DNA of 32,000 nucleotides from Candidatus Thalassarchaeaceae archaeon (GCA_045568075.1 JBJLBP010000001.1:210001-242000), one strand, 5' to 3'; positions 2,906 through 24,800 are shown, numbered from the stretch's first letter. Notes: generated by a model from the sequence alone, not told the origin. A program made the numbers and translations.

Positions 2906-4108
2906 ATGAACGAGAAACATTCCGACAAGGAATTCGCAACCCGCGCGGTTTGGTCAGGAACACAGAATGTCGAAGGAGCAGCAGTCACTCCTATCTTCCT
3001 TTCATCTACCTACCAACTTACCGATGAAGCCTATGCTGGCTGGGCTGCCGGCGCCCAGCACACAGCCCTCTACTCGCGTCTTTCGAGCATCAACTCAGAA
3101 GGCGTGGCGATGAAGCTCGCCCAGCTCGAAGGAGCAGAGGACGGCGAGACATTCGCTAGCGGAATGGCAGCCATTTCGACCACTCTCATGGGTCTTCTAT
3201 CAAGTGGCGACCACATGGTCGCCAGTGCAGATTGCTACGGCGGAACTTACGGCCTCATGACAGAAGATCTTCCGCGCTTCGGCATCGAAGTAACGATGGC
3301 CGATATGCGAGATCCATCATCTTACGAGGCTGCCATCCAAGAGAATACCAAGATCCTCTATGTAGAGACAATCACGAACCCGGTAATCAAGGTCTGCGAT
3401 CTCGAAGCGATGGCTGCTATCGCCAAAAAGCACGGACTAATCGCAATTGTCGACAATACATTCGCTTCACCATACGCCTGTAATCCAATCGATTACGGCT
3501 TTGATCTGGTGATTCATTCAGGCACAAAGTACCTCGGTGGACACTCAGACCTCATTGCCGGACTCGTCGTCGGTCGCAAGGACCTCGTTGCGGAAATATT
3601 CCCAAAGAAGGTTCACTTTGGTGGCGCAGCAGACCCACACATGTGCTACATGCTCGAGCGCGGCATGCGAACTCTCCACGCGCGCATGCCGATTCATACA
3701 GCGAATGCAGCAGAACTCGCGCTCCGTCTAGAAGCTCACGACATGATTGATTATGTCAATCATCCAAGTCTTCCATCAAGCCCAGATTACGAGGTTGCTC
3801 AGCGCATCATTCCACACGGAACCGGCATGATGGGATTCGTCGTCAAGGGCGGCGACGAAGCGGCTTTGAGTTTCATGAGGAATCTCGACATAATTTTCGA
3901 AGCAACCAGCCTTGGAGGGGTAGAGAGTTTGGTAGAGTGCCCATTCAACTCCAGCCACATGTTCGTTCCTGAAGAAGTGCGCAACGAAGCAGGAGTCATT
4001 CCTGGATTCGTTCGTATGAGTGTTGGTATTGAGAGCGTTGAAGACCTTTGGAATGATATCGCTACAGCTCTGGCTCAGACAGAAGCACATCTAGCAACCC
4101 TCGCATAA
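2906..4108 (+). CDS. Cys/Met-metabolism PLP-dependent enzyme (cystathionine gamma-synthase / O-acylhomoserine sulfhydrylase / methionine gamma-lyase family)
   Basis: 400 aa. Motifs SGMAAI, DCYGGTY, VDNTFASPY and the PLP-lysine block HSGTKYLGGHSDLIAGLVVG. Confidence 0.85.
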   Translation: MNEKHSDKEFATRAVWSGTQNVEGAAVTPIFLSSTYQLTDEAYAGWAAGAQHTALYSRLSSINSEGVAMKLAQLEGAEDGETFASGMAAISTTLMGLLSSGDHMVASADCYGGTYGLMTEDLPRFGIEVTMADMRDPSSYEAAIQENTKILYVETITNPVIKVCDLEAMAAIAKKHGLIAIVDNTFASPYACNPIDYGFDLVIHSGTKYLGGHSDLIAGLVVGRKDLVAEIFPKKVHFGGAADPHMCYMLERGMRTLHARMPIHTANAAELALRLEAHDMIDYVNHPSLPSSPDYEVAQRIIPHGTGMMGFVVKGGDEAALSFMRNLDIIFEATSLGGVESLVECPFNSSHMFVPEEVRNEAGVIPGFVRMSVGIESVEDLWNDIATALAQTEAHLATLA

Positions 4109-4121
4109 TCGAGGTGAGCGT

Positions 4122-4721
4122 TTGAACGAAGCAGATTTCGTTGCTTTGCTAGTCTTCATTTTGCCAATGTGCTTCACGCCCGGACCTAACAACCTCCTCT
4201 GTGCGGCTCACGGTTCTCAGCATGGCTTCCGCGCAACAATTCCCCTTTCCCTTGGGATGTTCGCCGGTTGGTCCCTCTTGGGAGTCGCGGTCGGCGTAGG
4301 CACAGTCTTCATCGAAGAAAATGAGGCGTTATTCCTCGGCTTGACTTACATCGGCGCGGCCTACATTGCTTACCTTGGTTGGAAGGTAGCTACATCGAAG
4401 CCCGAATCGGTTGACGCCGAGGATACCGAACGCCTCGGCTTCCTCACAGGCCTGGCTCTACAAGTTGTCAATGGGAAGGCCTGGATCCACTTTCTTGTTA
4501 TCATGGCCTCTTGGAGCACACTTTTCGGAACTGGCTTTGGCGGCAAAGTCATTCTCGTTGCGGTGAACGGTATCTTTGGTTACCCAGCTGTCCTCACTTG
4601 GGCAGCATTTGGCATGGGTCTCAGTAAAATATTCTCGACTCCAGAAAAGGCTAGAATCCTGAACGGAGCACTAGGATTATCTCTTATTCTAGTCGCGATT
4701 TGGGTTGCCTTACCACATTAG
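4122..4721 (+). CDS. LysE/RhtB-family amino-acid exporter
   Basis: 199 aa, TTG start, multiple hydrophobic segments. N-terminal FTPGPNNLL signature of the LysE/RhtB family. Sits 13 nt after the PLP enzyme gene. Confidence 0.75.
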   Translation: MNEADFVALLVFILPMCFTPGPNNLLCAAHGSQHGFRATIPLSLGMFAGWSLLGVAVGVGTVFIEENEALFLGLTYIGAAYIAYLGWKVATSKPESVDAEDTERLGFLTGLALQVVNGKAWIHFLVIMASWSTLFGTGFGGKVILVAVNGIFGYPAVLTWAAFGMGLSKIFSTPEKARILNGALGLSLILVAIWVALPH

Positions 4722-4840
4722 TCACAATTATGACCAATACCCATTGTTGGACACAACCAATCGTGACAAATTTCACACTGCCAGATATTCCCAGAGCATT
4801 CTGTCTTCAGGCAATGACAAACCGAACATTTTCCGACCAT
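4718..4840 (-). CDS. Cys-rich micro-protein (40 aa core; the ORF could extend to 4924)
   Basis: MVGKCSVCHCLKTECSGNIWQCEICHDWLCPTMGIGHNCD has 8 Cys and 3 His. It shares an N-terminal M-x-G-[KR]-C-x-[VI]-C and a C-x(2,3)-C-x-[DE]-W-[LV]-C block with ORF 5202-5372. I chose the start by that paralog alignment. Its 3' end overlaps the LysE stop by 4 nt (convergent). Confidence 0.45.
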   Translation of the reverse strand: MVGKCSVCHCLKTECSGNIWQCEICHDWLCPTMGIGHNCD

Positions 4841-4946
4841 AATTTTTCTGAAATTAACAGATTTGTTAAACATTTTTGACCTTTTAACCGCCTTTTTGAA
4901 CATATTGTAGGGAGGGATTAACAAAGACCTCTATTCAGAATGCATC

Positions 4947-5225
4947 ATGGCTCACATACCAGGTACAGGTCACGCAAACAGAAGAAGAAGTTTGGCTAAG
5001 ACTCTCACATGGAGAACTATTGGAACATTGGATACAATATTGATCGCTTCCTTCCTTTCCAAGAGTTTGGCCATCGGACTCGGCGTAGGAGTAACTGAAT
5101 TATTCACAAAGATGTTTCTGTATTACTTCCATGAAAGAGCATGGAGTAGGTCAGATTGGGGCTTGGAAGATGTTCCGATAGAGACACCAGAATCAATAGA
5201 ATCAACAGCAACTGTTCTCAGTTGA
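4947..5225 (+). CDS. Small membrane protein, DUF2061-like
   Basis: 92 aa. SLAKTLTWRTIGTLDTILIASFL...GVTELFTKMFLYYFHERAW resembles, from my memory, the DUF2061 pattern (TWR...T......YY.HER.W). Two hydrophobic helices. Confidence 0.55.
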   Translation: MAHIPGTGHANRRRSLAKTLTWRTIGTLDTILIASFLSKSLAIGLGVGVTELFTKMFLYYFHERAWSRSDWGLEDVPIETPESIESTATVLS

Positions 5226-7129: not shown

Positions 7130-7957
7130 TCATCGTTGGCCCTTGCGGCGCTCGTAGGCTTCGCGCTCCAAGCCGCTGAATTCAGCGGGTAAAATCAGAC
7201 AGTGAATACGCCCTCTATCGACCTTTGCGATATCCTCAAGATTGCCCGAAACCACCCTCTGGTCGGGCGTTCCAAGGTCGCTGAGAAGAATAGAATCCCA
7301 CTGCGCGATGGGTGTGCTCATACTGTCTCTAGTGTCGCCTTCTCGCTCGGTCAGCCGCTCTGCCATTTTTTGGAGAAGTTCGACTGCCTGGGCCGGGCGC
7401 ATAGGTTGTGGTTGTTCGACACCCATTCCAGTTGGGTCGAGGTCCAATAGAACGAGGGTGTGTAGGTCGGAGCGGTAGTTCGCATCGATCAGTTCGAGAG
7501 GGGATGTTGGCAGGTAATCACCGTAAGCGAATGGTAGTGTTACTTGGCGGCCGAAGCGGTAAGATTGCAGGCCGGATAATGATACTGCGAGGGATGTCGC
7601 GCTGAGGCCTGGAATAACGGAAAATTCGATTGACTGCTCGTCACAATGTGCTTCTAAATCGATGTGAGTTGTGGCTTGCATGGGATCACCTACGACTAGC
7701 AGAGCAACGGGACTGTTTCGAGCTAATTCGAGGATTTCCGATGGTTTTTCGACCTCTGGTCGCATGGCTCGCTGCCATGGTCCTATGAGTGATTCAAGCC
7801 GACTTTCTTGGTCGCTTGGCAGTGTTGCTGTGTAGCCTTCTAGAAATCTGTGTTCACAGGCGCGAGCGTGCTCGATAGCATCGGCTGTCATCAGCCCTAG
7901 GTCACCTGGACCAAGGCCAATGAGCCAGAGCCCTGCGGGGAGCGCGCCGTCCGTCAT
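7130..7957 (-). CDS. dphB: Diphthine synthase (EF-2 diphthamide biosynthesis methyltransferase)
   Basis: From the internal Met: MTDGALPAGLWLIGLGPGDLGLMTADAIEHARACEHRFLEGYTA...VALLVVGDPMQATTHIDL...IPGLSA. This is the tetrapyrrole-methylase fold pattern of Dph5/DphB. The 343-aa track ORF adds an unsupported N-terminal extension that overlaps the next gene. Confidence 0.8.
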   Translation of the reverse strand: MTDGALPAGLWLIGLGPGDLGLMTADAIEHARACEHRFLEGYTATLPSDQESRLESLIGPWQRAMRPEVEKPSEILELARNSPVALLVVGDPMQATTHIDLEAHCDEQSIEFSVIPGLSATSLAVSLSGLQSYRFGRQVTLPFAYGDYLPTSPLELIDANYRSDLHTLVLLDLDPTGMGVEQPQPMRPAQAVELLQKMAERLTEREGDTRDSMSTPIAQWDSILLSDLGTPDQRVVSGNLEDIAKVDRGRIHCLILPAEFSGLEREAYERRKGQR

Positions 7958-7991
7958 GGTGAAGCGGGGGGTGTGCCTGCCCGTCATCAAC

Positions 7992-9188
7992 ATGATGCGC
8001 CACTTGGTCGTTCCAAATCGCGAGGTCGAGGCTGTTCTAGGCCATGTTCGTGCTCGTGGATGGGGGGCGTTGAGCCACAGGGTTTTCTCTAGTGAAGACG
8101 GATTTTCACGACTAATACCACTAGATGCAGGGGCACCATTGGAACTCCCTGATTCCCTCAACTATCCTATCGAAATGCATGAGGGTATTCCCGACGAGAA
8201 AATTGAGACAGATTGGCTAACTCTTCTTGCAACAGAAGTGGATCAGTCGACAATTTCTGAAAAAGGCGAGTCTTGGCCGTCGAATCACGAATTTGTTGGC
8301 GATATGATGATTGTTAGAATCGATGATGAAGTTGCAGAGTTCACCGCCTCCATCGCTAGAGCAAAACTCGGCGCTCACCCACACATTCGCTTACTTCTGG
8401 CCGATGATGGTGTAGAGGGAGAGTTCAGAATCCGGCAACTGAGGCCCATTGGAGCGAGACTAGCGGATAGAATTCTTGCCGGCCCCAGCCTAGAGTTTGC
8501 ACCTCCAGATCTTTTCTCAACAGAGGTCGCAGTCAAGGAAAGTGGCCGAGTAATCCGATGCGACCCGACACGTGCTTACTTCTCCACCAAATTGCAAACC
8601 GAGAGACTAGAGACTCTGGCTTTAGCCAAGGAATTACGAGAAGAACTCGGTCGCCCGTTGAGAGTCGCTGACCCTTTTTGTGGAGTCGGCCCAGCCCTTG
8701 CTACTTTACTCGGAGAACCCGATTTGATCTCGGATTTACTAGCTACAGATCTAAACCCAAATGCAGTCCAACTTTTGATGACCAACCTTTCGAAATGGGA
8801 CAGAAAACCATACCCTGAGGGAGCGCCAGATATTCACCGCGCGCACGAAAACCGTCTTGTCGGTTTGGCAGATGCATTGACTCTCTCCGCCTCTTCCTCA
8901 ATCGCGGGCCAATGGGACCTAGTTTTGGTCAACTTACCTCACAGAACAATCGAATTCCTTCCATCCCTTGTTCCATTACTCGACCGAAGTAATCCATCAC
9001 TAATTCGCGGTAGAGCTATTGTCGAAGAGAGTGCTATTGAGGAGGCAAATCAAGCGATAATATCGGCACTACCAGGCATCATGCCTGACAAACCACAGCC
9101 CTCTCTGAAAATTAAGAGAGATTACAGTGCATCCCTCCGACTTTGCTCCTTCCAAGCATGGCTTAGTCCAGAGGTGGAGCAGAATTGA
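7992..9188 (+). CDS. Trm5/Taw2 (Met-10+) family class I SAM-dependent tRNA methyltransferase
   Basis: YFSTKLQTERLE, DPFCGVGPALATL, ATDLNPNAVQLL and VLVNLPH match the Met-10+/Trm5 motif order. The start is uncertain: ATG 7992 is preferred and ATG 7956 is possible. Confidence 0.75.
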   Translation: MMRHLVVPNREVEAVLGHVRARGWGALSHRVFSSEDGFSRLIPLDAGAPLELPDSLNYPIEMHEGIPDEKIETDWLTLLATEVDQSTISEKGESWPSNHEFVGDMMIVRIDDEVAEFTASIARAKLGAHPHIRLLLADDGVEGEFRIRQLRPIGARLADRILAGPSLEFAPPDLFSTEVAVKESGRVIRCDPTRAYFSTKLQTERLETLALAKELREELGRPLRVADPFCGVGPALATLLGEPDLISDLLATDLNPNAVQLLMTNLSKWDRKPYPEGAPDIHRAHENRLVGLADALTLSASSSIAGQWDLVLVNLPHRTIEFLPSLVPLLDRSNPSLIRGRAIVEESAIEEANQAIISALPGIMPDKPQPSLKIKRDYSASLRLCSFQAWLSPEVEQN

Positions 9189-10858
9189 AAAATATCCTTA
9201 GTTCTATCTCGGAGAAAGCCCTGAAAAATCCAGATAAGATTGCTTTCGCATTTATGAAAGAAGACTCGCCGGGTGAAGGCTACAACCAAATTTCCTTCAA
9301 AGAATTGGATGAGAAAAGTAGTAGGGCAGCGATTCTTCTTTCTCGTCAAGGTTTCCACGAAGGTGTTGTTACACTGGTCTTGGTTAAGCCCAGTATTGAT
9401 TTCGTAATTCTTCTTTATGGAATGCTAAAAACAGGAGCAGTACCCCTTTTACTTCCTAGTCTAAACATTAGAAGCAGATCTGGAAGGAGGGAATTCAGGA
9501 AGATTCTGAATCGTGCTAACCCAAGAGGTGTTATTGGAACAGGAGTAAATATTGCAATCAATCGACTACTTTCGTTATCAAAGAAGACGGACAACGTACT
9601 TCGGTTTGCAAAATTAAAGAAATTTTACTCTAATTCCGACAACCCGACGTCATTCGATATAGCCTCAGATTTGGATTGGAGCGAATCTGCGGCATTTGTC
9701 AAGTATACCACTGGAACGACAGGCCCGCCAAAAGGAGTCATTTACACACACGGAATGTTACATTCGCATCTGAAAGTGTTAGGATCACAGGGCTTTACTG
9801 ACAGAGACGTATTCTATGGCCGAGGAGGCACTCTAATTGTACACCCCCTCATTGGAATGACGTCTGTTGTGAACATGTCTTCACCCAAGCAAACTTTAGG
9901 GCCCAATATTGTCAAAACTGCGAATCAATGGAATGTAACCTGGACCTTCCTTTCCCCTCCCTCAGCGATCAATCTAGCTGAGTACTTAGTTGGCCAAACC
10001 AACTCGCCAATTAGCCAAATGATTCCTTCCATTAGGAGATTGTACGTAGGTGGAGAATCAGTAGCCGCCGAAGTTGTTGAAATCATTGAACCTCATTTAT
10101 CAGAGCAAAGACCATCCGAAGGAGGATTTCATCTAGTCTATGGAGCCACTGAAGGATTTCCTCTATGCCATGCTTCAGCATCAACAATAATCGGAACCAA
10201 ACACCAAACTTCGTCAGGAATGGGTGTTTGTGTAGGTAGAGAGGTTGGAGATGTACAATTGAGAATCTTGCCTTTTGAGGAGGCTGGCGATACAAAAGAC
10301 ACGACTGATATGGTAAGTGGAGCGCCAACATTCCAATTTTCAATCGGAGAAATTTCAGTTAATGGCCCAGTAGTTTACTCTCGTCTGGTTGGTGGAGATG
10401 AGGAGGAATTTGGAGGCGCCCTTTCTTGGGCTTTTGACAAAAATGATGGCACTTATTGGCACCGAACAGGAGACCTTGGATACAGGGACAAAGAAGGTAG
10501 AATTTGGCTTGTAGGAAGGAAGTCACATAGAGTTGAATTAGAAGGCGGACTAACCTTGCAGACGAAACAGATTGAAGAATTCTATAACTCTTTGACCGGC
10601 CTCAGAACTGCGTTAGTTAGAGGATTGCATGGCGGTAAACCGGTACTTTTAGTGGAAAAATATGAAGGCGACTGGCTAAAAATTGTATCAATAATGACAG
10701 AACATCTCACCCGACTTTCAGATCTATTCGGCGAAGATGTGAATCTTCAATTCATACACTATAATGGCTCATTCCCAGTCGATAAAGGCCACGAGGCAAA
10801 AATTGAGCGAGAAAAACTCAACTCTTGGGCCATCGAAAAGTTGCGGCATTTAGAATGA
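9185..10858 (+). CDS. AMP-forming acyl/aryl-CoA (or acyl-carrier) ligase, ANL superfamily
   Basis: 557 aa. Core motifs YTTGTTGPPKGVIYTH, YGATEG and TGDLGYRDKEGRIWLVGRKSHRV. The TTG start at 9185 overlaps the TGA stop (9186-9188) of the upstream gene. Confidence 0.8.
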   Translation: MKNILSSISEKALKNPDKIAFAFMKEDSPGEGYNQISFKELDEKSSRAAILLSRQGFHEGVVTLVLVKPSIDFVILLYGMLKTGAVPLLLPSLNIRSRSGRREFRKILNRANPRGVIGTGVNIAINRLLSLSKKTDNVLRFAKLKKFYSNSDNPTSFDIASDLDWSESAAFVKYTTGTTGPPKGVIYTHGMLHSHLKVLGSQGFTDRDVFYGRGGTLIVHPLIGMTSVVNMSSPKQTLGPNIVKTANQWNVTWTFLSPPSAINLAEYLVGQTNSPISQMIPSIRRLYVGGESVAAEVVEIIEPHLSEQRPSEGGFHLVYGATEGFPLCHASASTIIGTKHQTSSGMGVCVGREVGDVQLRILPFEEAGDTKDTTDMVSGAPTFQFSIGEISVNGPVVYSRLVGGDEEEFGGALSWAFDKNDGTYWHRTGDLGYRDKEGRIWLVGRKSHRVELEGGLTLQTKQIEEFYNSLTGLRTALVRGLHGGKPVLLVEKYEGDWLKIVSIMTEHLTRLSDLFGEDVNLQFIHYNGSFPVDKGHEAKIEREKLNSWAIEKLRHLE

Positions 10859-10924: not shown

Positions 10925-11158
10925 ATGAGCGAACCTAGTGGTCATGATTGCCCTCGGTGCAGTGTTGAATTGTTCATAGAAGTCAATGAAGATGTTGAAG
11001 GTGTAGATTTATTGATTTGTAAACAATGTTGGGGAGTAGGAATAACTGCTAAATCTCTAGATTCGGTAATCTCTCCAGGAAGTTTGTTGGATGAAAGAAG
11101 CAAGATGAAGCAACCACAACTAGCGGAGATTGTAAATGTCCAATGTGTTCTACAATAA
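10925..11158 (+). CDS. Zinc-ribbon protein (CPxC...CxxC), probably the N-terminal fragment of a longer gene fused to 11143-12093
   Basis: CPRCSVELFIEVNEDVEGVDLLICKQCWGVGITAKSLDSV is one complete four-Cys ribbon. The ORF ends 16 nt after the next ORF's ATG, in a different frame. Confidence 0.55.
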   Translation: MSEPSGHDCPRCSVELFIEVNEDVEGVDLLICKQCWGVGITAKSLDSVISPGSLLDERSKMKQPQLAEIVNVQCVLQ

Positions 11159-12093
11159 TGGATGAAATCGAATTAGAAATTCCTGAAAATATAGTCGCGA
11201 AAATTAGCATGATTGAAAAAGAAACCAGCTCACTTAGCCACTCTAATACGGTAATCATTGACTCTTGTAGCAACTGTCCATCATTCTGGTTTGATGCCGG
11301 AGAGTTAGATTTACTAAATGGAATAACACCCAAACTCAGAGGGTCAAATTACGACAAAAAAACAGTTAGATTACTCGAAGACCCCACACTAACTCAAGAA
11401 GATTTTCAAAGGAAACAAATCGTCAGGAGAGTCGCTGGGGGACTATTCGTATTATTCGCTATTTGGTTTGGCCTTGACTCAAATGATATTGGGAAAATAG
11501 CCGCTGGAATAGTGGGTCTTGGCGGATTGATTGCAATGTTTTCCAGTAATCCCGAACAAGCTCTTGCAACAGGAACCTGCGATAAGTGTTGGAAACCAGA
11601 TAAATTACTTGCGTGGAATTGTCAAAGAGGAGGCTGCTGGGCACATATCTGTAGCGATTGCGAAAGTATTGGAGATGACCCAGTTGAAACCTATGCTAAG
11701 ACTCTGGGGGCGATTGCTCTGGGGGTCGTTGTCCTAGGAGTAGGAGCAGCGGCGATTTCAAGCGGGGGTGCTGGATTAGGGGGTATACCTGGAGGAGGAT
11801 CGAGTGAAAAAGAAAAGAAGCCTACTAAGATAGACATGCTCCTTTGTGGAGAATGCACAGAAATTTGGAAAGAAGAAAAGACGGAGAAAATCCCAGTCGA
11901 TTCAGATGTCGAAGAAGCCATTGTCGAAGAAAGCAGCCCTAAATCCGAATCAATGTCGCCAGCAGAAAGACAACGCCGCCAATTTCAAAACTGTTCTATT
12001 GAGGGTTGCAATGCCCTTGTTTTCCGCATGACAGATTACTGTGGCAAACACCAAGCCAAGAAAAGTAGATTCAAATTCATGGACGGAGAATAG
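11143..12093 (+). CDS. Multi-zinc-ribbon membrane protein with C-terminal C-x4-C-x10-C-x2-H module
   Basis: 316 aa. Second-knuckle signature CSNCPSFWFDAGELDLL. Three hydrophobic segments (VAGGLFVLFAIWFGL, IAAGIVGLGGLIAMF, LGAIALGVVVLGVGAAAI). Cys cluster CDKCWKPDKLLAWNCQRGGCWAHICSDC, then CGEC. Tail QNCSIEGCNALVFRMTDYCGKHQ. The first knuckle (CKCPMC) begins upstream of the annotated ATG in the same frame. Confidence 0.65.
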   Translation: MCSTIMDEIELEIPENIVAKISMIEKETSSLSHSNTVIIDSCSNCPSFWFDAGELDLLNGITPKLRGSNYDKKTVRLLEDPTLTQEDFQRKQIVRRVAGGLFVLFAIWFGLDSNDIGKIAAGIVGLGGLIAMFSSNPEQALATGTCDKCWKPDKLLAWNCQRGGCWAHICSDCESIGDDPVETYAKTLGAIALGVVVLGVGAAAISSGGAGLGGIPGGGSSEKEKKPTKIDMLLCGECTEIWKEEKTEKIPVDSDVEEAIVEESSPKSESMSPAERQRRQFQNCSIEGCNALVFRMTDYCGKHQAKKSRFKFMDGE

Positions 12094-12099
12094 TTGTGA

Positions 12100-12480
12100 T
12101 TGGAGACTTCTTATTGGAAATTCTTTGCTTCGGCCTCTTTTGGCTCTTGTTCACGCCAGGAGCAAAAGGCGCCCCAGGTGTTTTCCGAATCGCTTGCTGA
12201 CACTCCCAGCGCTCAATCCTTGTATCAGGATTTTTTGGAAAAATATGAACCGAATGACAACGGGGATGCTCGAAGGTTAAGGAAGTCACTAACTCCTGCT
12301 CAAAGGCGCCTCCAGCAAATGCAAAACTGTTCAATCGACTCTTGCAATGCGTTAACTTACCGAGCCTCAGATTATTGTTTGAGACATCAACCATCCATGC
12401 TTGAGGAAATCGTATCAGAGCCAGAGCCGGCGCCCGATCCCCAAGCAGAAGCCAACTGGTGGGAAGAAAAAACGGATTGA
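12100..12480 (+). CDS. Small protein carrying the same C-terminal C-x4-C-x10-C-x2-H module; start uncertain
   Basis: QNCSIDSCNALTYRASDYCLRHQ at nt 12328-12390 is nearly identical to the tail of the upstream gene, including shared nucleotide runs caaaactgttc and tgcaatgc. TTG start at 12100; GTG at 12178 is an alternative. Confidence 0.5.
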   Translation: METSYWKFFASASFGSCSRQEQKAPQVFSESLADTPSAQSLYQDFLEKYEPNDNGDARRLRKSLTPAQRRLQQMQNCSIDSCNALTYRASDYCLRHQPSMLEEIVSEPEPAPDPQAEANWWEEKTD

Positions 12481-12878
12481 AGTTAGTGGAAAAGGCGGAC
12501 GAGATAGGGTACCTTGGAGCTGGGATAGTTCTCTATTGGAGAGGAAGCCCGTGGTGGCCTTATTCCTCCGCATCTTGATGACCCGGAATCGCAAGAGCTG
12601 TGGCACCATGGGTTGCTACGATATTTGTATCGTCCCAGCCTTATTTCTGTATCTGTTATTCTGTTCATACATATCGTTCATCTTCTGTAGATTTCTTGGG
12701 CGGATAGATTACGAAAACAGGATGTCGAGTGCGAACATATTCGAGGGCTTGGGGCCGATGAGCGTGCGGAAAGCCCGCATTGCACCAATGAGAGCGGAAC
12801 GCTCGAACGGTTAAGCGCACCAGCCACCCATCGGACTCCTGGCGTAATCAACCACTGGGAAAACAGGATACGCCGCCT

Positions 12879-13535
12879 ATGGCACATACCGCTGTGGCTT
12901 GTGCGATGGAGAACTATCAACACAAAGCAGGCCGCGATGCGTTCGAAAATCACCCTATCACTCCTAATGAAATCCTCGAGCAGGGCTCTCCGTGTGGTTT
13001 GGACTGCCCCATATGCTCATCGGAGATGGTTGAGATCACCCTGCTTCACATCAGGAAGAAGGAATCATACAACCCCGGATCCGTACCTAGCCCAAGCCAC
13101 CCTGTGATTGACGCCATCATGCTGGGTCTCGTCGTGATCGATGTAATAGCGCACCAAGCCCAAGAGAGCAAGGATAACCGAACTCAGACCATCGAACTCA
13201 ACGGCTGTACCGATTGCGGCTCCTTTTGGTTCGATGCCTTCGAGATGTCTACAGTCGAGAGCGCCGCTAATGTCATCCAGACGGATCCAGCGTCCTTGGA
13301 GATGCTTGCGGAGAAGGAGAGAGAGTGGGAAGAAACAGTGATTGAACTTCAGATGTCCGAGGCCGAAAGGCGCGAGCGCGAGGTATCTCGGCAGCCCCGA
13401 GCTCGAGACCGCCGTGGAAGGGCGCAGAACACAATCTGCCTCCACAGCGACAATTTGACGGGCAAGAAGTGCCGTAGGGGTATCTCTCGAAGTAGTGATT
13501 ACTGCTACGTGCACCAATCACAAGGACCCCAATAA
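12879..13535 (+). CDS. Zinc-ribbon protein with long inter-knuckle insert and C-terminal C-x10-C-x10-C-x2-H module
   Basis: 218 aa. CPICSSEMVEITL...(insert containing VIDAIMLGLVVIDVIA)...TIELNGCTDCGSFWFDAFEM. Glu/Arg-rich linker. Tail ICLHSDNLTGKKCRRGISRSSDYCYVHQ (nt 13437-13514). Confidence 0.65.
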   Translation: MAHTAVACAMENYQHKAGRDAFENHPITPNEILEQGSPCGLDCPICSSEMVEITLLHIRKKESYNPGSVPSPSHPVIDAIMLGLVVIDVIAHQAQESKDNRTQTIELNGCTDCGSFWFDAFEMSTVESAANVIQTDPASLEMLAEKEREWEETVIELQMSEAERREREVSRQPRARDRRGRAQNTICLHSDNLTGKKCRRGISRSSDYCYVHQSQGPQ

Positions 13536-13536
13536 G

Positions 13537-13612
13537 TGGCGCCCCGACCGGGATTTGAACCCGGGTCGCAGCCTCGACAGGGCTGCATGATAGGCCACTA
13601 CACCATCAGGGC
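13537..13612 (-). tRNA. tRNA-Asp (anticodon GUC), CCA encoded
   Basis: Reverse complement is GCCCTGATGGTGTAGTGGCCTATCATGCAGCCCTGTCGAGGCTGCGACCCGGGTTCAAATCCCGGTCGGGGCGCCA. Acceptor GCCCTGA/TCGGGGC has one G-U pair. Anticodon stem CAGCC/GGCTG, loop CTGTCGA. T arm CCGGG-TTCAAAT-CCCGG. Confidence 0.9.
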
Positions 13613-13757: not shown

Positions 13758-14342
13758 ATGAGCGATGACCGCCTCGTCATCGATGTCGTCGATAATGGCG
13801 GCCAATGGACTCATCGCGAATGGCGCATGCTGCGCTACATGGGCGTCGACACCCAGATAATTCCCAACAAAACACCCCTCTCAGAACTTCGAACTTTAGA
13901 CGGGTTAATTCTCTCAGGTGGGGCAGCCCGAGTAGGTCTGACTGGAGAACTTGGCAATTGTGGGGCCTATCTAGAGCTCGACATACCAATTCTGGGGATA
14001 TGCGCCGGCCACCAATTCATGGCCGGATTTTACGGCGGCCGAGCAGACGAGGCCCCCGCTCCCGAGTTCGGCGCTGCGACAATCAATCTCATCGACGGTG
14101 GCGGCCTTATCTTCGCAGGTACGCCCGAGACTCAGAACGTGTGGGAAAGTCACAACGACGAGGTTGTGGAAGTGCCAGAGGGGTTCCGCATTACCGCAAG
14201 CAGCGAATCGTGCGAAATTCAAGCGATGGAGAACCAAACACAGGACCGATTCGGTCTTCAATTCCATCCAGAAGTCAACGATTCAGAGTATGGTGTACAG
14301 ATCTTTGAGAACTTCGTAGATATCTGTAGAAGGGCCCGTTAG
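13758..14342 (+). CDS. guaAA: GMP synthase, glutamine amidotransferase subunit A (class I GATase)
   Basis: 194 aa. GLILSGG, catalytic ILGICAGHQFMA, and HNDEV...FGLQFHPEV. The stand-alone size fits the archaeal split GMP synthase. No ATP-pyrophosphatase subunit is adjacent. Confidence 0.8.
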   Translation: MSDDRLVIDVVDNGGQWTHREWRMLRYMGVDTQIIPNKTPLSELRTLDGLILSGGAARVGLTGELGNCGAYLELDIPILGICAGHQFMAGFYGGRADEAPAPEFGAATINLIDGGGLIFAGTPETQNVWESHNDEVVEVPEGFRITASSESCEIQAMENQTQDRFGLQFHPEVNDSEYGVQIFENFVDICRRAR

Positions 14343-14347: not shown

Positions 14348-14395
14348 GTATCAGCGATGAGCAGATTGAAGAAGGGCTGTCAGGTCGGCGGCTCG

Positions 14396-14665
14396 ATGGC
14401 GAACAGGCTCACTCTCTACAAGTGCCGCTCCTGCAACCGCACTGACCGCAAACCGTACGATCCAGACGGCAACGCCTCGTGCAATCATTGCAGCTCACCG
14501 ATGGACTCTCTTGAGCCTCGATACAAGTGTCTGCGCTGCGGGCACATCGAGTGGATAGAGGTCGGCACAGTTGGCAAGTCATGTCACAAGTGTGGATACC
14601 GTATCTTCGTCAAGCCGCGCAAGGAAGGAACTGACCGCGGATACAAGATTCTCCGAGCACGCTGA
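14396..14665 (+). CDS. rpoP: DNA-directed RNA polymerase subunit P (Rpo12/RPABC4-like) with an extra N-terminal zinc ribbon
   Basis: The C-terminal half YKCLRCGHIEWIEVGTVGKSCHKCGYRIFVKPRKE matches the RpoP pattern (YxCxxCG...CPxCGYRIxxKxR). The N-terminal half YKCRSCNRTDRKPYDPDGNASCNHCSSP repeats the same C-x2-C-x14/15-C-x2-C layout. Start taken at ATG 14396 (the track ORF starts at 14357). Confidence 0.7.
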   Translation: MANRLTLYKCRSCNRTDRKPYDPDGNASCNHCSSPMDSLEPRYKCLRCGHIEWIEVGTVGKSCHKCGYRIFVKPRKEGTDRGYKILRAR

Positions 14666-21866: not shown

Positions 21867-24800
21867 GTGATCGAAATGGAGACAGTGAAGGTAAGGAGCA
21901 GTATTGCGATGGTACTCATCATGACGATGAGCCTATTCGCAACATTGGAATTCTCCGAAAGAGCAGAAGGAAGCGAGATAGTTTTGACAGACGCGATTCA
22001 GGTCGTGAATGGAGGAACACATAGTGACAGAATGGTATCAATGGACGCAGATTCATTCGGTAATACTCACTTTGTCTGGAGCAGAAACTCTCACCACCTT
22101 TACTACAAGATGTTGGATGCTCGAGGCGACGTTCTAATTGATGAAACCCAGATTTCCAACCCGGGAACTCACCGCGCTTGGCATCCTGATGTAGCAGTCG
22201 ATACTGACGACAATGTCCACATCGTTTGGGCTGACAAGTCAAATCAATGGTCGATTCTCTATACGCTCTTGGATCCATCTCAAGACGACCAAGACGGAAG
22301 CTCCGGATTAGATGCCGTTCTTTCAATAATTAACGACGAAGAAATCGCGAGCCACGCACAAAATCGAGATTGGCCAGCAATCGCAGTGGATTCTCAGAAG
22401 AACCCACACATTGTTTGGGAAGATGCCTATGAGCAGTTGGACAAATTCTACCAACAGCCTCAGATTTACTACAAGATGCTCGAAATAGACCTTCCCGGCA
22501 GGGAAGCGATTGTCGCCATTGAGGAAACTCTTCTAACTCCTATCATTGGACACAAGGGTCACCCCGATGTCGCCGTCGATGCTGACGATTTAGTGCAGGT
22601 CGTATGGGATGACACCCGCGGTGGCAAAGTGGAAATGGTCGTACCAATCGATACCTCGGGTTCGATGAATACCGAGTGGGCAGACATGTGTGTTGTTTTC
22701 TACGGCGGTAATTTCGCTAGCGGAGGATCCTTCGAAGGACTGAAGCCGATGCTCGTCGACGCCAACATGACAGTCTTCGAGACACTTTACGCACTCAGTG
22801 GTAATTGGCCTGCTGCAGCCACTTCCGGAACTTGCGCATCAGCTTACCAGACCGGAGGCTCAGGAAGTCAAGGGCCACGATCGACCCATCTCGGCCAGAC
22901 CCCTTCTGATGACTCTGGCGGCATCCGCGAGTTAACTGAAGTAGTCTACAATGGAGGAGCGGTAAATCTTCCACAAGACGGAGGATACTACTCCGAATTC
23001 TGGGGCCCGGCTTCAACATGGGCGTGCCTCTCATGGCGAGACGCGCAGGGCCGCATGGGCAATTCCGCCAATCCACCAACTCAACTAGACCACCGCTGGA
23101 ACCCGAACGCCACCAAGATCGTCATACCAATTTCAGACGAAGGTCCGTATGGTGGAGACCCTGCACAGCAGTCTGACGACACGCAGAGTATCAACGAGGC
23201 TCACGATGCCTGCGTCATCTCAGACATCGTCCCAGTCCCGCTGATGGCGGCAGGATGGGGCCAGGGCTCGACCGATGTCGGCTCTCACATGCAAGATTTA
23301 GCTCAATGTCCGAATGGATTCGTATCTGTAGGTACGCGTACCTGTCCTGGGACGACCACCCGTAATACCAATGCTGGCGGACAGATGTACAGTTTCCCTA
23401 CAGGGTCCAGTAGTGCTGCCGACCTACAATTAATGGTTGAAGCATTGGTTTACCTTGCAACCAACAACTCCCGTGAGATATTCATCTCAATCCTCGACCC
23501 ATACGCTCTACTCGAGAGCCCATGGGCCGGTTGGACCAAGGGCGACCCAGGAACAAAGGTCGTCAATAATCGATATGTCGAGGACATTGGCCCATCATCT
23601 GACCACCAAGGATACGGGCACCTCGTTGTCGTTAACGACACGAGAATCACTTTGCAGGATGCATTCAGTCTGCACCCTTCGATTGCTATCGACACATCGG
23701 GTAATACCCACATCGCTTGGATGGATGGCCGCGCTTACGGTTTTGATATCGCAGAAAATTACGAAATTTACTACGTACGACTTCGATTGCGCGGAGCAGC
23801 CGCATGGGACGGAGCACCAGAGGGGCTCCCATCCTACGGAATCAAGCAAATTACCGACTCAGTCATATCTACAGTTGAGGGAATCGATGGGGTCGACGAA
23901 GATCGGCCATATGGTGCTAATTCACACATGCCGGAAATCCTAACCGACTCATTCGACAATGTCCACATCTCTTGGCTGGACAATGGCAATGAGACTCAGG
24001 GCGAGACCGTCATGTATGTCCGCTTGAACCATACGAATGACGACTACCCTGAAGGATTCCCACTGAATTCTCTCGCTTGGGGAGTAATCGATCCGTGGGA
24101 GGTCCACGAGGTCTCTGAGTGGGAGTCGGACAAACTCGGCCCTAACTCACCATTCGCTCCTGACCTCGGCCAACCACCAGCATTCGCTAATGATTTGGGC
24201 AGTGGTGTCCACATCGCGTGGTCTGACACCAACAGGTGCAACGATCAGAATAATCAGGGCCAATACACAATCTGCTATGTGCACGTGCTAACAGGTCTTG
24301 TAGAGGTTGCTTTGACCGAGACTGAGACCTTCTATCATACAATTGAGCCTGGCCAGCAGACGACATACAATATGACGATCTCTAACCCTACACCAGGCCC
24401 TGCTGAACTGGTCGCGGACACTTACACAGTGTATCTGAGTGGCGTTCCAAACAACTGGACTGCGACACTATTCTTTGCAACCAACCATACGCCGATTTTC
24501 GATTCGACACCAGTATTCCTACGAGGAGGCGATATCGTATCGGTCTACATGCGCGTACGTGCGCCGACAATCTATCAGGCGGATGAGGACGAATTGGCGG
24601 CAATCACAGTCCATGCTCTCTCTCACAAAGATCCTGCAATCGCCGATGAGCGTCTGACACTCACACTGATGGATGTGGTCCACGGAATAAATCTCGACAC
24701 CAGTCACTTCCAAGTAGATGTTGAACAAGGCCAATCGGCGATTTTCTCAATCACTGTGACGAATACTGGGAACGTCTACGATACCTTTGCCTTCTACGAT

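Follow-up and report, generated by a model that had tools for sequence, protein, structure and literature searches.

Archaea of Marine Group II (MGII; Poseidoniales) are among the most abundant planktonic archaea, are uncultured, and carry many lineage-specific genes that are unannotated. Two kinds of small zinc-binding element are relevant to the genes described here. Ribbons of family PF13453 (Zn_ribbon_TFIIB) resemble the TFIIB ribbon, which contacts RNA polymerase, and knuckles with three Cys ligands and one His (CCCH) include the WRC and HNH-associated fingers, which occur in DNA-binding proteins, and zf-C3Hc3H, whose members KANSL2 and INO80D are subunits of large complexes. In Mcm10 the CCCH finger ZnF1 and an adjacent OB-fold form a continuous DNA-binding surface for both single- and double-stranded DNA (PMC5333062). 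A survey of archaeal hypothetical families reports many that are Poseidoniales-specific and many with small zinc-finger matches, and the proteins analyzed here are not described in it (PMC9258230). In the literature we found no paper on the CCCH family DUF5763, and zf-C3Hc3H is only mentioned in passing. Here we analyze a 32,000-nucleotide stretch from a Candidatus Thalassarchaeaceae archaeon (GCA_045568075.1, JBJLBP010000001.1:210001-242000; "the window" refers to the whole of this stretch), in which three genes at positions 10925-13535, termed A, B, and C, code for hydrophobic segments together with one or both kinds of element. We favor, tentatively and with slightly less than even confidence, the reading that they encode membrane-anchored multi-zinc-site proteins whose fingers are cytoplasmic, tethered to the membrane, and bind nucleic acid.

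Three disrupted genes and their common tail module

A sequence-only reading of this region had described four consecutive paralogous open reading frames (ORFs), forming a locally expanded family and sharing an unassigned C-terminal Cys3-His module. An ORF scan finds all four on the plus strand (10925-11158, 11143-12093, 12100-12480, and 12879-13535; ORFs 1 to 4), but gene models taken from intact relatives (designated P for proteins and L for contigs; the comparisons are with P0001, P0121, L001, and L009) show that these are three genes and not four, each broken in the window sequence by small insertions or deletions (indels). ORF1 and ORF2 form a single gene, A, of ~381 codons, because P0001 (381 amino acids, 92% identical) covers both, the sequence CKCPMC of the first knuckle of ribbon 2 lies in the ORF2 frame 5' of the ORF2 ATG where there is no start codon, and the frame switches after ...LLDER at ~11099-11100. 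A search with ORF2 extended 5' to the preceding stop codon returned 163 clusters of gene A homologues, mostly of 374-408 amino acids. Gene B encodes ~125 amino acids and its true start is a GTG at 12096, the first 27 residues of ORF3 being out of frame owing to an extra T at 12181-12184 (TTTT in the window, TTT in L001); its relatives start at the corresponding GTG and encode an N-terminal hydrophobic helix. Orthologues of gene B are present in L001 (3181-3477), L002-L004 (L002 7667-7996, 109 amino acids), L005 (7053-7397, 114 amino acids), L006, and L027, and the complete copies in L002, L005, and L006 encode 109-114 amino acids.

Gene C encodes ~346 amino acids, as does P0121 (346 amino acids, 90% identical), and there are 31 other homologues of 340-358 amino acids. 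The first ~130 residues of these homologues are found scattered over all three frames in a three-frame translation of 12486-12950, and alignment with L009, whose DNA is 97% identical, identifies nine indel events between 12573 and 12936 (+T 12573; +AGAG 12594-97; +C 12736; +T 12759; +GT 12810-11; +C 12838; +A 12879; -C after 12915; -T after 12936). The ATG with which ORF4 begins arises from the extra A at 12879 (CCT-TGG in L009, CCTATGG in the window). Together with those at ~11099 and 12181-12184 this makes eleven frame-disrupting events, and the flanking genes appear intact. The coordinates of the genes and their parts are collected in Table 1.

Table 1. Genes A, B, and C, their parts, and the bordering features, in window coordinates
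Feature	Coordinates	Strand	Evidence or remark
AMP-binding enzyme gene	9185..10858	+	PF00501 112 bits; first gene of the low-GC cassette that also carries A and B
Gene A, 5' part (ORF1), zinc ribbon 1	10925..11098	+	PF13453 18.8 bits, residues 8-49; collinear with P0001 1-58
Gene A, frameshift	11099..11100	+	Two bases where intact orthologues have a codon; P0001 reads DER followed by KDDAITTSGDCKCPMC
Gene A, 3' part (ORF2 plus 14 codons 5' of its ATG)	11101..12093	+	Homologues 374-408 amino acids
Gene A, ribbon 2 knuckles	11131-11148 and 11266-11316	+	Invariant columns
Gene A, hydrophobic hairpin	11419-11544	+	Hydropathy, AlphaFold2
Gene A, invariant Cys/His cluster	11578-11661	+	Invariant columns
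Gene A, third hydrophobic segment	11698-11769	+	Hydropathy, AlphaFold2
Gene A, CxxC	11845-11856	+	Invariant columns
Gene A, linker and short-loop Cys3-His knuckle	11944..12054	+	Core 11992-12051; 37-residue insert copied from gene B
Gene B (ORF3, start corrected to GTG 12096)	12096..12480	+	Orthologues, DNA comparison; module hidden Markov model (HMM) E 2.7e-13
Gene B, N-terminal hydrophobic helix	12096-12161	+	
Gene B, short-loop knuckle core	12328-12387	+	
Gene B, acidic end EANWWEEKTD	12418-12477	+	
Gene C (ORF4 = last 218 codons)	12486..13535	+	P0121, L009 alignment; module HMM E 1.1e-15
Gene C, split ribbon	Knuckle 12993-13016, hydrophobic helix 13098-13154, FWFD-signature knuckle 13206-13247	+	PF13453 19.0 bits
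Gene C, long-loop Cys3-His knuckle	13437-13514	+	Module HMM
tRNA-Asp (GTC)	13537..13612	-	ARAGORN; downstream border of the variable slot

The three predicted proteins end in the same kind of tail and differ in what precedes it. Gene A encodes two PF13453 ribbons, a hydrophobic hairpin, a Cys/His cluster, a third hydrophobic segment with a CxxC pair on each side, a charged linker, and the terminal knuckle. Its ribbon 1 consists of CPRC, 19 residues, and then CKQCWGVG. Among 55 gene A orthologues the ligand positions of ribbon 1 (C9, C12, C32, and C35), of ribbon 2 (C71, C74, C114, and C117, with FWFDAGELDLLNGI), and of the cluster (C218, C221, C232, C237, H240, C242, and C245) are invariant or nearly so, and C242 and C245, along with the C307/C310 pair 3' of the third hydrophobic segment, are all invariant. 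Gene C encodes N-terminal hydrophobic segments, a CPHC...CGLC ribbon, a second ribbon with a hydrophobic helix between its knuckles, a charged coil, and a long-loop knuckle. The C242/C245 pair, hydrophobic segment, and C307/C310 pair of gene A align with this helix-split ribbon, so that a unit composed of CxxC, a hydrophobic helix of ~20 residues, and CxxC recurs in P0001 at 242-310 (window ~11650-11856) and in the window at 12993-13247. The unit looks like a zinc ribbon in which a membrane-type helix serves as the hairpin loop.

Gene B is the simplest of the three, with an N-terminal hydrophobic helix, a basic linker, a short-loop knuckle, and an acidic end. An acidic peptide of this type, [NDEKY]WW[EDQA][EDK] (EANWWEEKTD, AANWWDDEN, EEDWWEDE...), is found repeatedly at the very C-terminal end of several distinct membrane proteins (window 12418-12477, L028 206-1063, L010 3478-4023, P0167, P0168, P0172, P0193, P0194, and P0198), one of which is a 285-residue repeat protein in the same hotspot that has no Cys3-His module. 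The peptide may function in docking or sorting, or it may be an end shared through recombination. Reading the QAEANWW terminus of gene B as a PIP box (PCNA-binding) was rejected, since its aromatic pair is displaced by one position and L002 lacks the Gln. In one further protein, P0198 (112 amino acids), the first ~67 residues of the GATase (...GLTGELGNC) are joined directly to a short-loop module and an NWWED end, which points to a chimeric assembly or else to a deletion or recombination event by which guaA became fused to gene B at a common 'NC'. Two possible relationships between genes A and B were also rejected: stop-codon read-through from A into B, as the two are in the same frame but TAG-TTG-TGA lies between them and B actually starts in a different frame, and origin of B by fission of A, as B also adjoins gene C where the slot contains no gene A.

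The three tails are present as they had been quoted, with spacing C-x4-C-x10-C-x2-H in genes A and B and C-x10-C-x10-C-x2-H in gene C, and with an Arg/Gln-rich stretch before each. The module is not a chance pattern, since a module HMM run against a six-frame translation of the entire window returns exactly three matches, all of them in these genes (E 1.5e-11 for gene A), and the Cys/Cys/Cys/His columns are invariant in 38 archaeal modules, where variation is confined to the first loop (4 to 13 residues). The long-loop form, C.H.D...GKKC.R..FR...YCY.H[KQ], is found in most gene A orthologues and all gene C orthologues, and the short-loop form, NCSI.GCNAL.[FY]R..DYC..HQ, in window genes A and B. 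The two align from the second Cys onward with C, C, and H invariant throughout, hhalign compares them with a probability of 97.2% (E 3.8e-11), and C-type tails with a four-residue loop (AQNTNCKEEKCRRVTYRSSEYCYMHQ in P0161, P0185, and P0188) bridge them; judged from these alignments they are a single homologous module, as the sequence-only reading had supposed. Its consensus is C-x(4-13)-C-x5-R-x4-C-x2-H; it is basic, with many Lys and Arg residues both in the module and in the stretch leading into it. The Arg of the [FY]R pair is invariant in 24 tails and 14 long-loop modules and present in at least 90% of a wider set, with replacement by Leu or Gln in three B-type copies. A tail-only AlphaFold2 model has a predicted local distance difference test score (pLDDT) of 78.8 and shows beta bridges, with C-x2-H lying in a short helix. 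That the four ligands are invariant suggests a putative single-zinc site.

The tail recurs with other N-termini. When the tail profile was compared with 1.84 billion cluster representatives, 49 proteins matched at E <=1e-3; two of these are repetitive false positives, none is eukaryotic, and the others are marine-archaeal in appearance and show at least six architectures. Besides the A, B, and C types these include one or two N-terminal modules followed by a hydrophobic segment, a module, and a C-terminal domain of ~250 residues (P0153, P0168, P0174, and P0176); two N-terminal C-x9-C-x10-C-x2-H modules, ribbons, a hydrophobic segment, and the tail (P0182, P0186, P0187, and P0195); and a module on either side of a hydrophobic segment (P0161 and P0167). 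All carriers checked by hydropathy have hydrophobic segments, short or truncated ones excepted, which bears out the membrane association that had been suggested for the locus.

The idea of a locally expanded family holds for the tail of gene A and not otherwise. Most genomes have gene A by itself, in a conserved core context described below. About 80% of gene A orthologues end in a Cys3-His tail and some are without it, with P0007 and P0012 lacking exactly the 37 residues SESMSPAERQRRQFQNCS...KHQ. The linker and tail of window gene A align without gaps to the corresponding part of gene B over 36 residues, with 56% identity (E 4e-17). By this comparison the gene A tail of the window is a local segmental copy (36-37 residues) of the gene B linker and tail, and the sole true local expansion here.

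A strain-variable slot in Marine Group II genomes

Gene A is present in 17 GTDB species genomes, three of which are single-cell genomes, and all 17 are either Poseidoniales/Thalassarchaeaceae or marine metagenome-assembled or single-cell genomes labelled only Euryarchaeota, Methanobacteriota, or Thermoplasmatota. Named members of the other module-bearing families belong to Poseidoniales or Ca. Thalassarchaeum, and all of the homologues found are from MGII archaea. A search of the viral contigs in IMG/VR returned no relative of gene A.

The gene order in the window is TP_methylase (minus strand), TYW2-like, AMP-binding, A, B, C, tRNA-Asp (minus strand), GATase, and RFC. GC content is 37-47% from 9185 to ~12400, a region that includes the AMP-binding gene and genes A and B, and 50-57% around it, rising through gene C, which suggests that the low-GC cassette is a recent acquisition or exchange. 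The slot between TYW2 and tRNA-Asp/GATase has several different contents. In L001 it contains the AMP-binding gene, A, and B in the same order as the window; in L005, L006, and L010 it contains a gene A without the tail, and B; in L002-L004 and L027, Peptidase_S15, B, and C; and in L028-L030, B and unrelated membrane proteins. The AMP-binding gene is missing from the slot in L005/L006 and in L002-L004/L027, and this tRNA-Asp also comes after gene B in L005 and after gene C in L009. The window GATase (13758-14342) is encoded identically in 347 blocks of the collection, and several long contigs with an identical GATase (64-90 kb; L027-L032) end within ~1.3 kb upstream of the GATase gene. The slot is therefore a strain-variable hotspot that breaks assemblies.

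The situation of gene A is quite different in 13 other species genomes, where it is alone, monocistronic, on the strand opposite to its neighbors, and in a conserved core context: fumarase, PPIase, A, a tRNA-binding protein, a phosphoribosyltransferase, and PolD DP2 (L011-L025, with gene A at about 4001-5150). Synteny is thus conserved in the core context and varies between strains in the slot. In the core context gene A is 46-66% identical (90% in the closest genome) and its neighbors 68-98%; gene A is a fast-evolving gene among slow neighbors.

These data bear on an alternative that we consider doubtful but the strongest of those weighed, that the window copies are decaying pseudogenes or the products of faulty or chimeric assembly, so that nothing at 10925-13535 is functional in this genome and the families are functional elsewhere. 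Eleven frame-disrupting events between flanking genes that read as intact are in keeping with this, and no exact copy of the 316-amino acid ORF2 product is on record. The indel cluster overlaps the junction of the low-GC cassette with native DNA of higher GC content, and coincides with the site where many long contigs from the same population end, as is typical of mis-assembly across strain variants. However, the indels aside, the window DNA is 97% identical to the intact L009 and the protein pieces are ~90% identical to their relatives, which is more easily reconciled with sequencing error or recent events than with prolonged decay, and intact orthologues are numerous and conserved. The eleven indels may be sequencing or assembly errors or real pseudogenisation.

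Several neighboring features were noted. Between GATase and RFC the window contains a 102-codon ORF (14357-14665, plus strand) with four CxxC pairs (CRSC, CNHC, CLRC, and CHKC) and no Pfam match, the second half of which reads like an RpoP-type ribbon (CHKCGYRIFVKPR); L005 has a gene of 89 amino acids (8257-8526) between GATase and RFC. A 1701-codon ORF (21867-26972, plus strand) contains CARDB, DUF11, DUF7507, and NPCBM_assoc repeats and is likely to encode a large surface protein. The longest ORFs for TP_methylase (7130-8161, minus strand, 343 amino acids) and the TYW2-like gene (7920-9188, plus strand, 422 amino acids) overlap by 240 bases; as their relatives are 274-281 and 394-397 amino acids long respectively, the real starts are probably further in.

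Membrane topology and possible function

In the reading that we tentatively favor, the zinc modules would lie on the cytoplasmic face of the membrane, where hydrophobic segments, in hairpin or re-entrant form, would hold them. The basic knuckle and its Arg-rich lead-in would bind nucleic acid, most probably DNA and with little sequence specificity, so that the knuckle would keep nucleic acid, or a protein partner, at the membrane, and the ribbons would serve in assembly or partner contacts. We infer nucleic-acid binding from the precedent of Mcm10 ZnF1, from the WRC and HNH-associated fingers of DNA-binding proteins, and from the abundance of Lys and Arg in the module and lead-in. A cytoplasmic location is suggested by the charges around the gene B helix, with no positive charge before it and Lys/Arg after it, and by the CxxC pairs that flank the third hydrophobic segment of gene A and align with the split ribbon of gene C. 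Two such knuckles can share one zinc only if the ends of the helix are on the same side, and a helix that crossed the membrane would rule out the unit as a single ribbon on topological grounds. It may therefore be that the hydrophobic segments do not span the membrane fully and act as hairpin or re-entrant anchors, which would also account for proteins such as P0167 in which a module is present on each side of the segment; the hydrophobic segment of P0167 has 25 residues with Pro-Pro in the middle. In gene A hydropathy places the segments at about 165-183, 191-206, and 258-281, and AlphaFold2 predicts helices in P0001 at 157-184, 187-205, and 252-270. A positive-inside count of the charges around the hydrophobic segments is not decisive.

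Several results weigh against this reading. Three true membrane spans would put the gene A tail outside the cell, and P0167-like proteins have a module on each side of a single hydrophobic segment. The full-length AlphaFold2 model of gene A is poor, with an overall pLDDT of 48.9 (ribbons ~70, first hairpin 74-87) and the Cys cluster, the surroundings of the third hydrophobic segment, and the tail unmodelled, and it consequently settles neither the topology of gene A nor the split-ribbon idea. There is no informative operon partner. The three window tails have no match in Pfam, even when scanned alone at E up to 5-10; profile searches of PDB sequences, both with the tail alignment and with the 38-module alignment, returned nothing relevant; and the structural matches of the tail model found with Foldseek are not significant (E 2.1 in the PDB and at least 0.05 in BFVD). 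The links of the module to known families are sub-threshold or transitive. Lastly, all three window copies are frame-disrupted and may be inactive here.

A different role for the same architecture, which we think rather unlikely, is that the knuckles and ribbons have no nucleic-acid binding of their own and are protein-protein modules of membrane-tethered regulators that, for example, hold a transcription factor or a polymerase subunit. The resemblance of PF13453 ribbons to the polymerase-contacting ribbon of TFIIB is in keeping with this, as are the residence of KANSL2 and INO80D (zf-C3Hc3H) in large complexes and the acidic 'NWW[ED][ED]' end common to several carriers, which resembles a docking motif. 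However, the module is strongly basic, as expected of a nucleic-acid binder, and no conserved candidate partner adjoins these genes, gene A being monocistronic between opposite-strand genes in 13 genomes.

We give still less credence to an extracellular location, in which disulfides would stabilize some or all of the Cys-rich modules and these would make up a rapidly evolving part of the cell surface, for instance a decoy, a receptor for viruses, or a determinant of cell-cell recognition. Such a feature would account for the location in a hypervariable island, and the slot is indeed strain-variable, with several gene contents among contigs with identical GATase, and gene A evolves much faster (46-66% identity) than its neighbors (78-93%) in the core context; the tail position predicted by three true spans and the occurrence of proteins with a module either side of a hydrophobic segment also agree with it. 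Against this, there are no signal peptides, the conserved His ligand and the CxxC ribbons indicate zinc sites, which are usually cytoplasmic, and the relatives of the module are intracellular DNA-associated fingers. Helix-split ribbons, moreover, need both knuckles on the same side of the membrane, and none of the PADLOC defence-system models matches genes A, B, and C, the AMP-binding gene, or either of two further carriers of the module.

A more ambitious extension of the favored reading, which we put forward as speculation and think rather unlikely, is that these are Poseidoniales-specific monotopic, hairpin-anchored, multi-zinc proteins that hold DNA, whether chromosomal, incoming, or viral, at the inner face of the membrane, built in at least six architectures around one basic CCCH knuckle, often with an NWWEE end, and encoded in part as exchangeable cassettes in the strain-variable tRNA-Asp hotspot. 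If so, they would constitute an unrecognised DNA-membrane tethering or DNA-surveillance system in one of the ocean's most abundant archaeal groups, and would include an unusual structural unit, a zinc ribbon with a membrane-inserted helix as its hairpin loop. Binding of DNA at the membrane by the tails would also provide a handle on chromosome-membrane or virus-host biology in MGII, and an experimentally tractable prokaryotic example of DUF5763-type fingers. The present results define three MGII families with corrected gene models and place their common tail in a widespread and almost unstudied CCCH class together with giant viruses, phage HNH endonucleases, KANSL2/INO80D, plant WRC, and Mcm10; with function inferred and building blocks known, we regard them as useful rather than surprising.

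Comparison with known zinc-finger families

Matches were evaluated against the Pfam gathering scores for PF13453 (22 bits), PF19067 (DUF5763, 26.3), PF13891 (zf-C3Hc3H, 27), PF08879 (WRC, 28.6), and PF09329 (zf-primase, 28.8). The N-terminal four-Cys ribbons had been attributed to a 'transcription factor zinc-finger' family, and this is PF13453, which matches ORF1, ORF2, and ORF4 with 18.8, 14.9, and 19.0 bits, all under the cut-off, and reaches threshold in intact homologues (precomputed PF13453 matches among gene A relatives; 26.9 bits in P0195). As in that family, named 'Zn-finger nucleic acid-binding protein' by the Joint Genome Institute (JGI), there are two CxxC knuckles, the second with C..C.G.W.D..EL. 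The motif is present in ribbon 2 of gene A (CPMC ... CSNCPSFWFDAGELDLL) and the ribbon of gene C (CPIC ... CTDCGSFWFDAFEM), its columns are invariant in the 55 gene A orthologues, and ribbon 1 of gene A has only CKQCWGVG. The ribbons differ from typical members in that the hairpin tips contain insertions, which we measure as ~39 soluble residues in gene A and ~63 residues including a hydrophobic helix in gene C (~42 and 72 had been proposed), and in being joined to membrane segments and a CCCH knuckle. Neither Pfam nor NCBIfam identifies an enzymatic domain in genes A, B, and C, in agreement with the sequence-only reading, and an NCBIfam scan of the window ORFs returned nothing meaningful.

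The tail had been called unassigned. This stands for the window copies, which fall below every Pfam threshold, and not for the module as a whole, since archaeal copies match DUF5763, zf-C3Hc3H, zf-primase, and HNH families of PHROG. Of 38 archaeal modules, eight match DUF5763, five zf-primase (best E 2.9e-4), five zf-C3Hc3H (E 0.003 or weaker), and three Zf_WRKY19. The best zf-primase score, 18.8 bits, is to the internal module of P0174. The N-terminal modules of P0187 match DUF5763 with 33.8 bits, above the cut-off, zf-C3Hc3H with 26.9 bits (cut-off 27), and WRC with 12.2 bits, and a gene-A type tail (P0030) matches DUF5763 with E 1e-3, the best orthologue tail scoring 19 bits. A homologue search with the N-terminal double modules of P0182, P0186, P0187, and P0195 for genuine DUF5763 proteins returned five candidates and one match, and no genuine DUF5763 protein. 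Among PHROG families, phrog_144 (HNH endonuclease, positions ~19-50) matches nine of the 38 modules and phrog_30100 seven, with P0167 at E 3.3e-5 on phrog_144; the window gene A tail is included (E 0.004 and 0.002, respectively), and the window gene B tail has E 0.06 (phrog_5351) and 0.08. With Foldseek the top PDB matches of the tail model are to the Mcm10 internal domain (3EBE and 7Y01; query-normalised TM-score 0.51-0.59, root-mean-square deviation 1.8-2.4 A, E 2.1-6.6), and in BFVD the model comes closest to giant-virus proteins that are uncharacterised, to HNH endonucleases, and to a phage 'WRC protein' (E 0.05-1, probability up to 1.0). All of these independent lines agree on the CCCH class, yet no single result is significant for the window tails.

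A resemblance to eukaryotic WRC had also been proposed, and is correct as to the broad class; true membership is very improbable. In its favor, the long-loop C.H.D...GKKC.R..FR...YCY.H resembles C.RTDGKKWRC...YC..H, some archaeal N-terminal modules have the exact C-x9-C-x10-C-x2-H spacing, P0187 matches with 12.2 bits, the highest WRC score of any archaeal protein, and the BFVD matches include a phage 'WRC protein'. Against it, the W-R-C motif is missing, the window tails have GC or KKC at the second ligand with spacing x4 or x10, WRC does not match them at any E up to 10, the same modules score higher with each of DUF5763, zf-C3Hc3H, and zf-primase than with WRC, and none of the 49 tail-profile matches is eukaryotic.

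Among the closest catalogued families is DUF5763, itself uncharacterised, with which the archaeal tails have in common the ligand pattern and length, with only the P0187 N-terminal modules exceeding its gathering score. They differ in having [FY]R five or six residues past the second Cys, YC[Y]xH[QK], and a first loop of 4-13 residues, and in always being in proteins with hydrophobic anchors; the window tails have no match. With zf-C3Hc3H, the 'potential DNA-binding domain' of KANSL2/INO80D, and WRC, of plant GRF proteins, the module shares C3H order, ~10 residues between the second and third Cys, C-x2-H, and basic character, and archaeal proteins of the P0153 and P0187 types have tandem C3H+C3H pairs as in zf-C3Hc3H. 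Both of these families are eukaryotic and nuclear, whereas the window proteins have one module, at the C-terminus of a membrane protein; zf-C3Hc3H is defined by two consecutive C3H units, and the window proteins each have a single unit and no match.

The Mcm10/primase finger (PF09329; 3EBE, 7Y01) has a similar spacing, C-x(9-10)-C-x(10-11)-C-x2-H, but acts together with an adjacent OB-fold, and there is no OB-fold or primase domain in genes A, B, and C. For the phage HNH endonucleases (phrog_144 and phrog_5351) and for phrog_30100, a small family, it is the first 30-40 profile positions that fit CS[IV][DE]GC...YC..H; the matches cover positions ~11-51 of phrog_144 and 37-74 of phrog_5351, whereas the genes here are cellular and not viral and have no HNH nuclease domain, with no HNH match in Pfam for the window proteins. 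The module is thus a divergent, lineage-specific branch of a catalogued and almost unstudied class of CCCH knuckles (DUF5763, zf-C3Hc3H, WRC, and Mcm10/primase), and neither a new fold nor an orphan motif. What is new is the architecture, in which PF13453 ribbons, some of them split by a helix, are combined with membrane anchors and a basic CCCH tail, in MGII only and partly in a variable hotspot.

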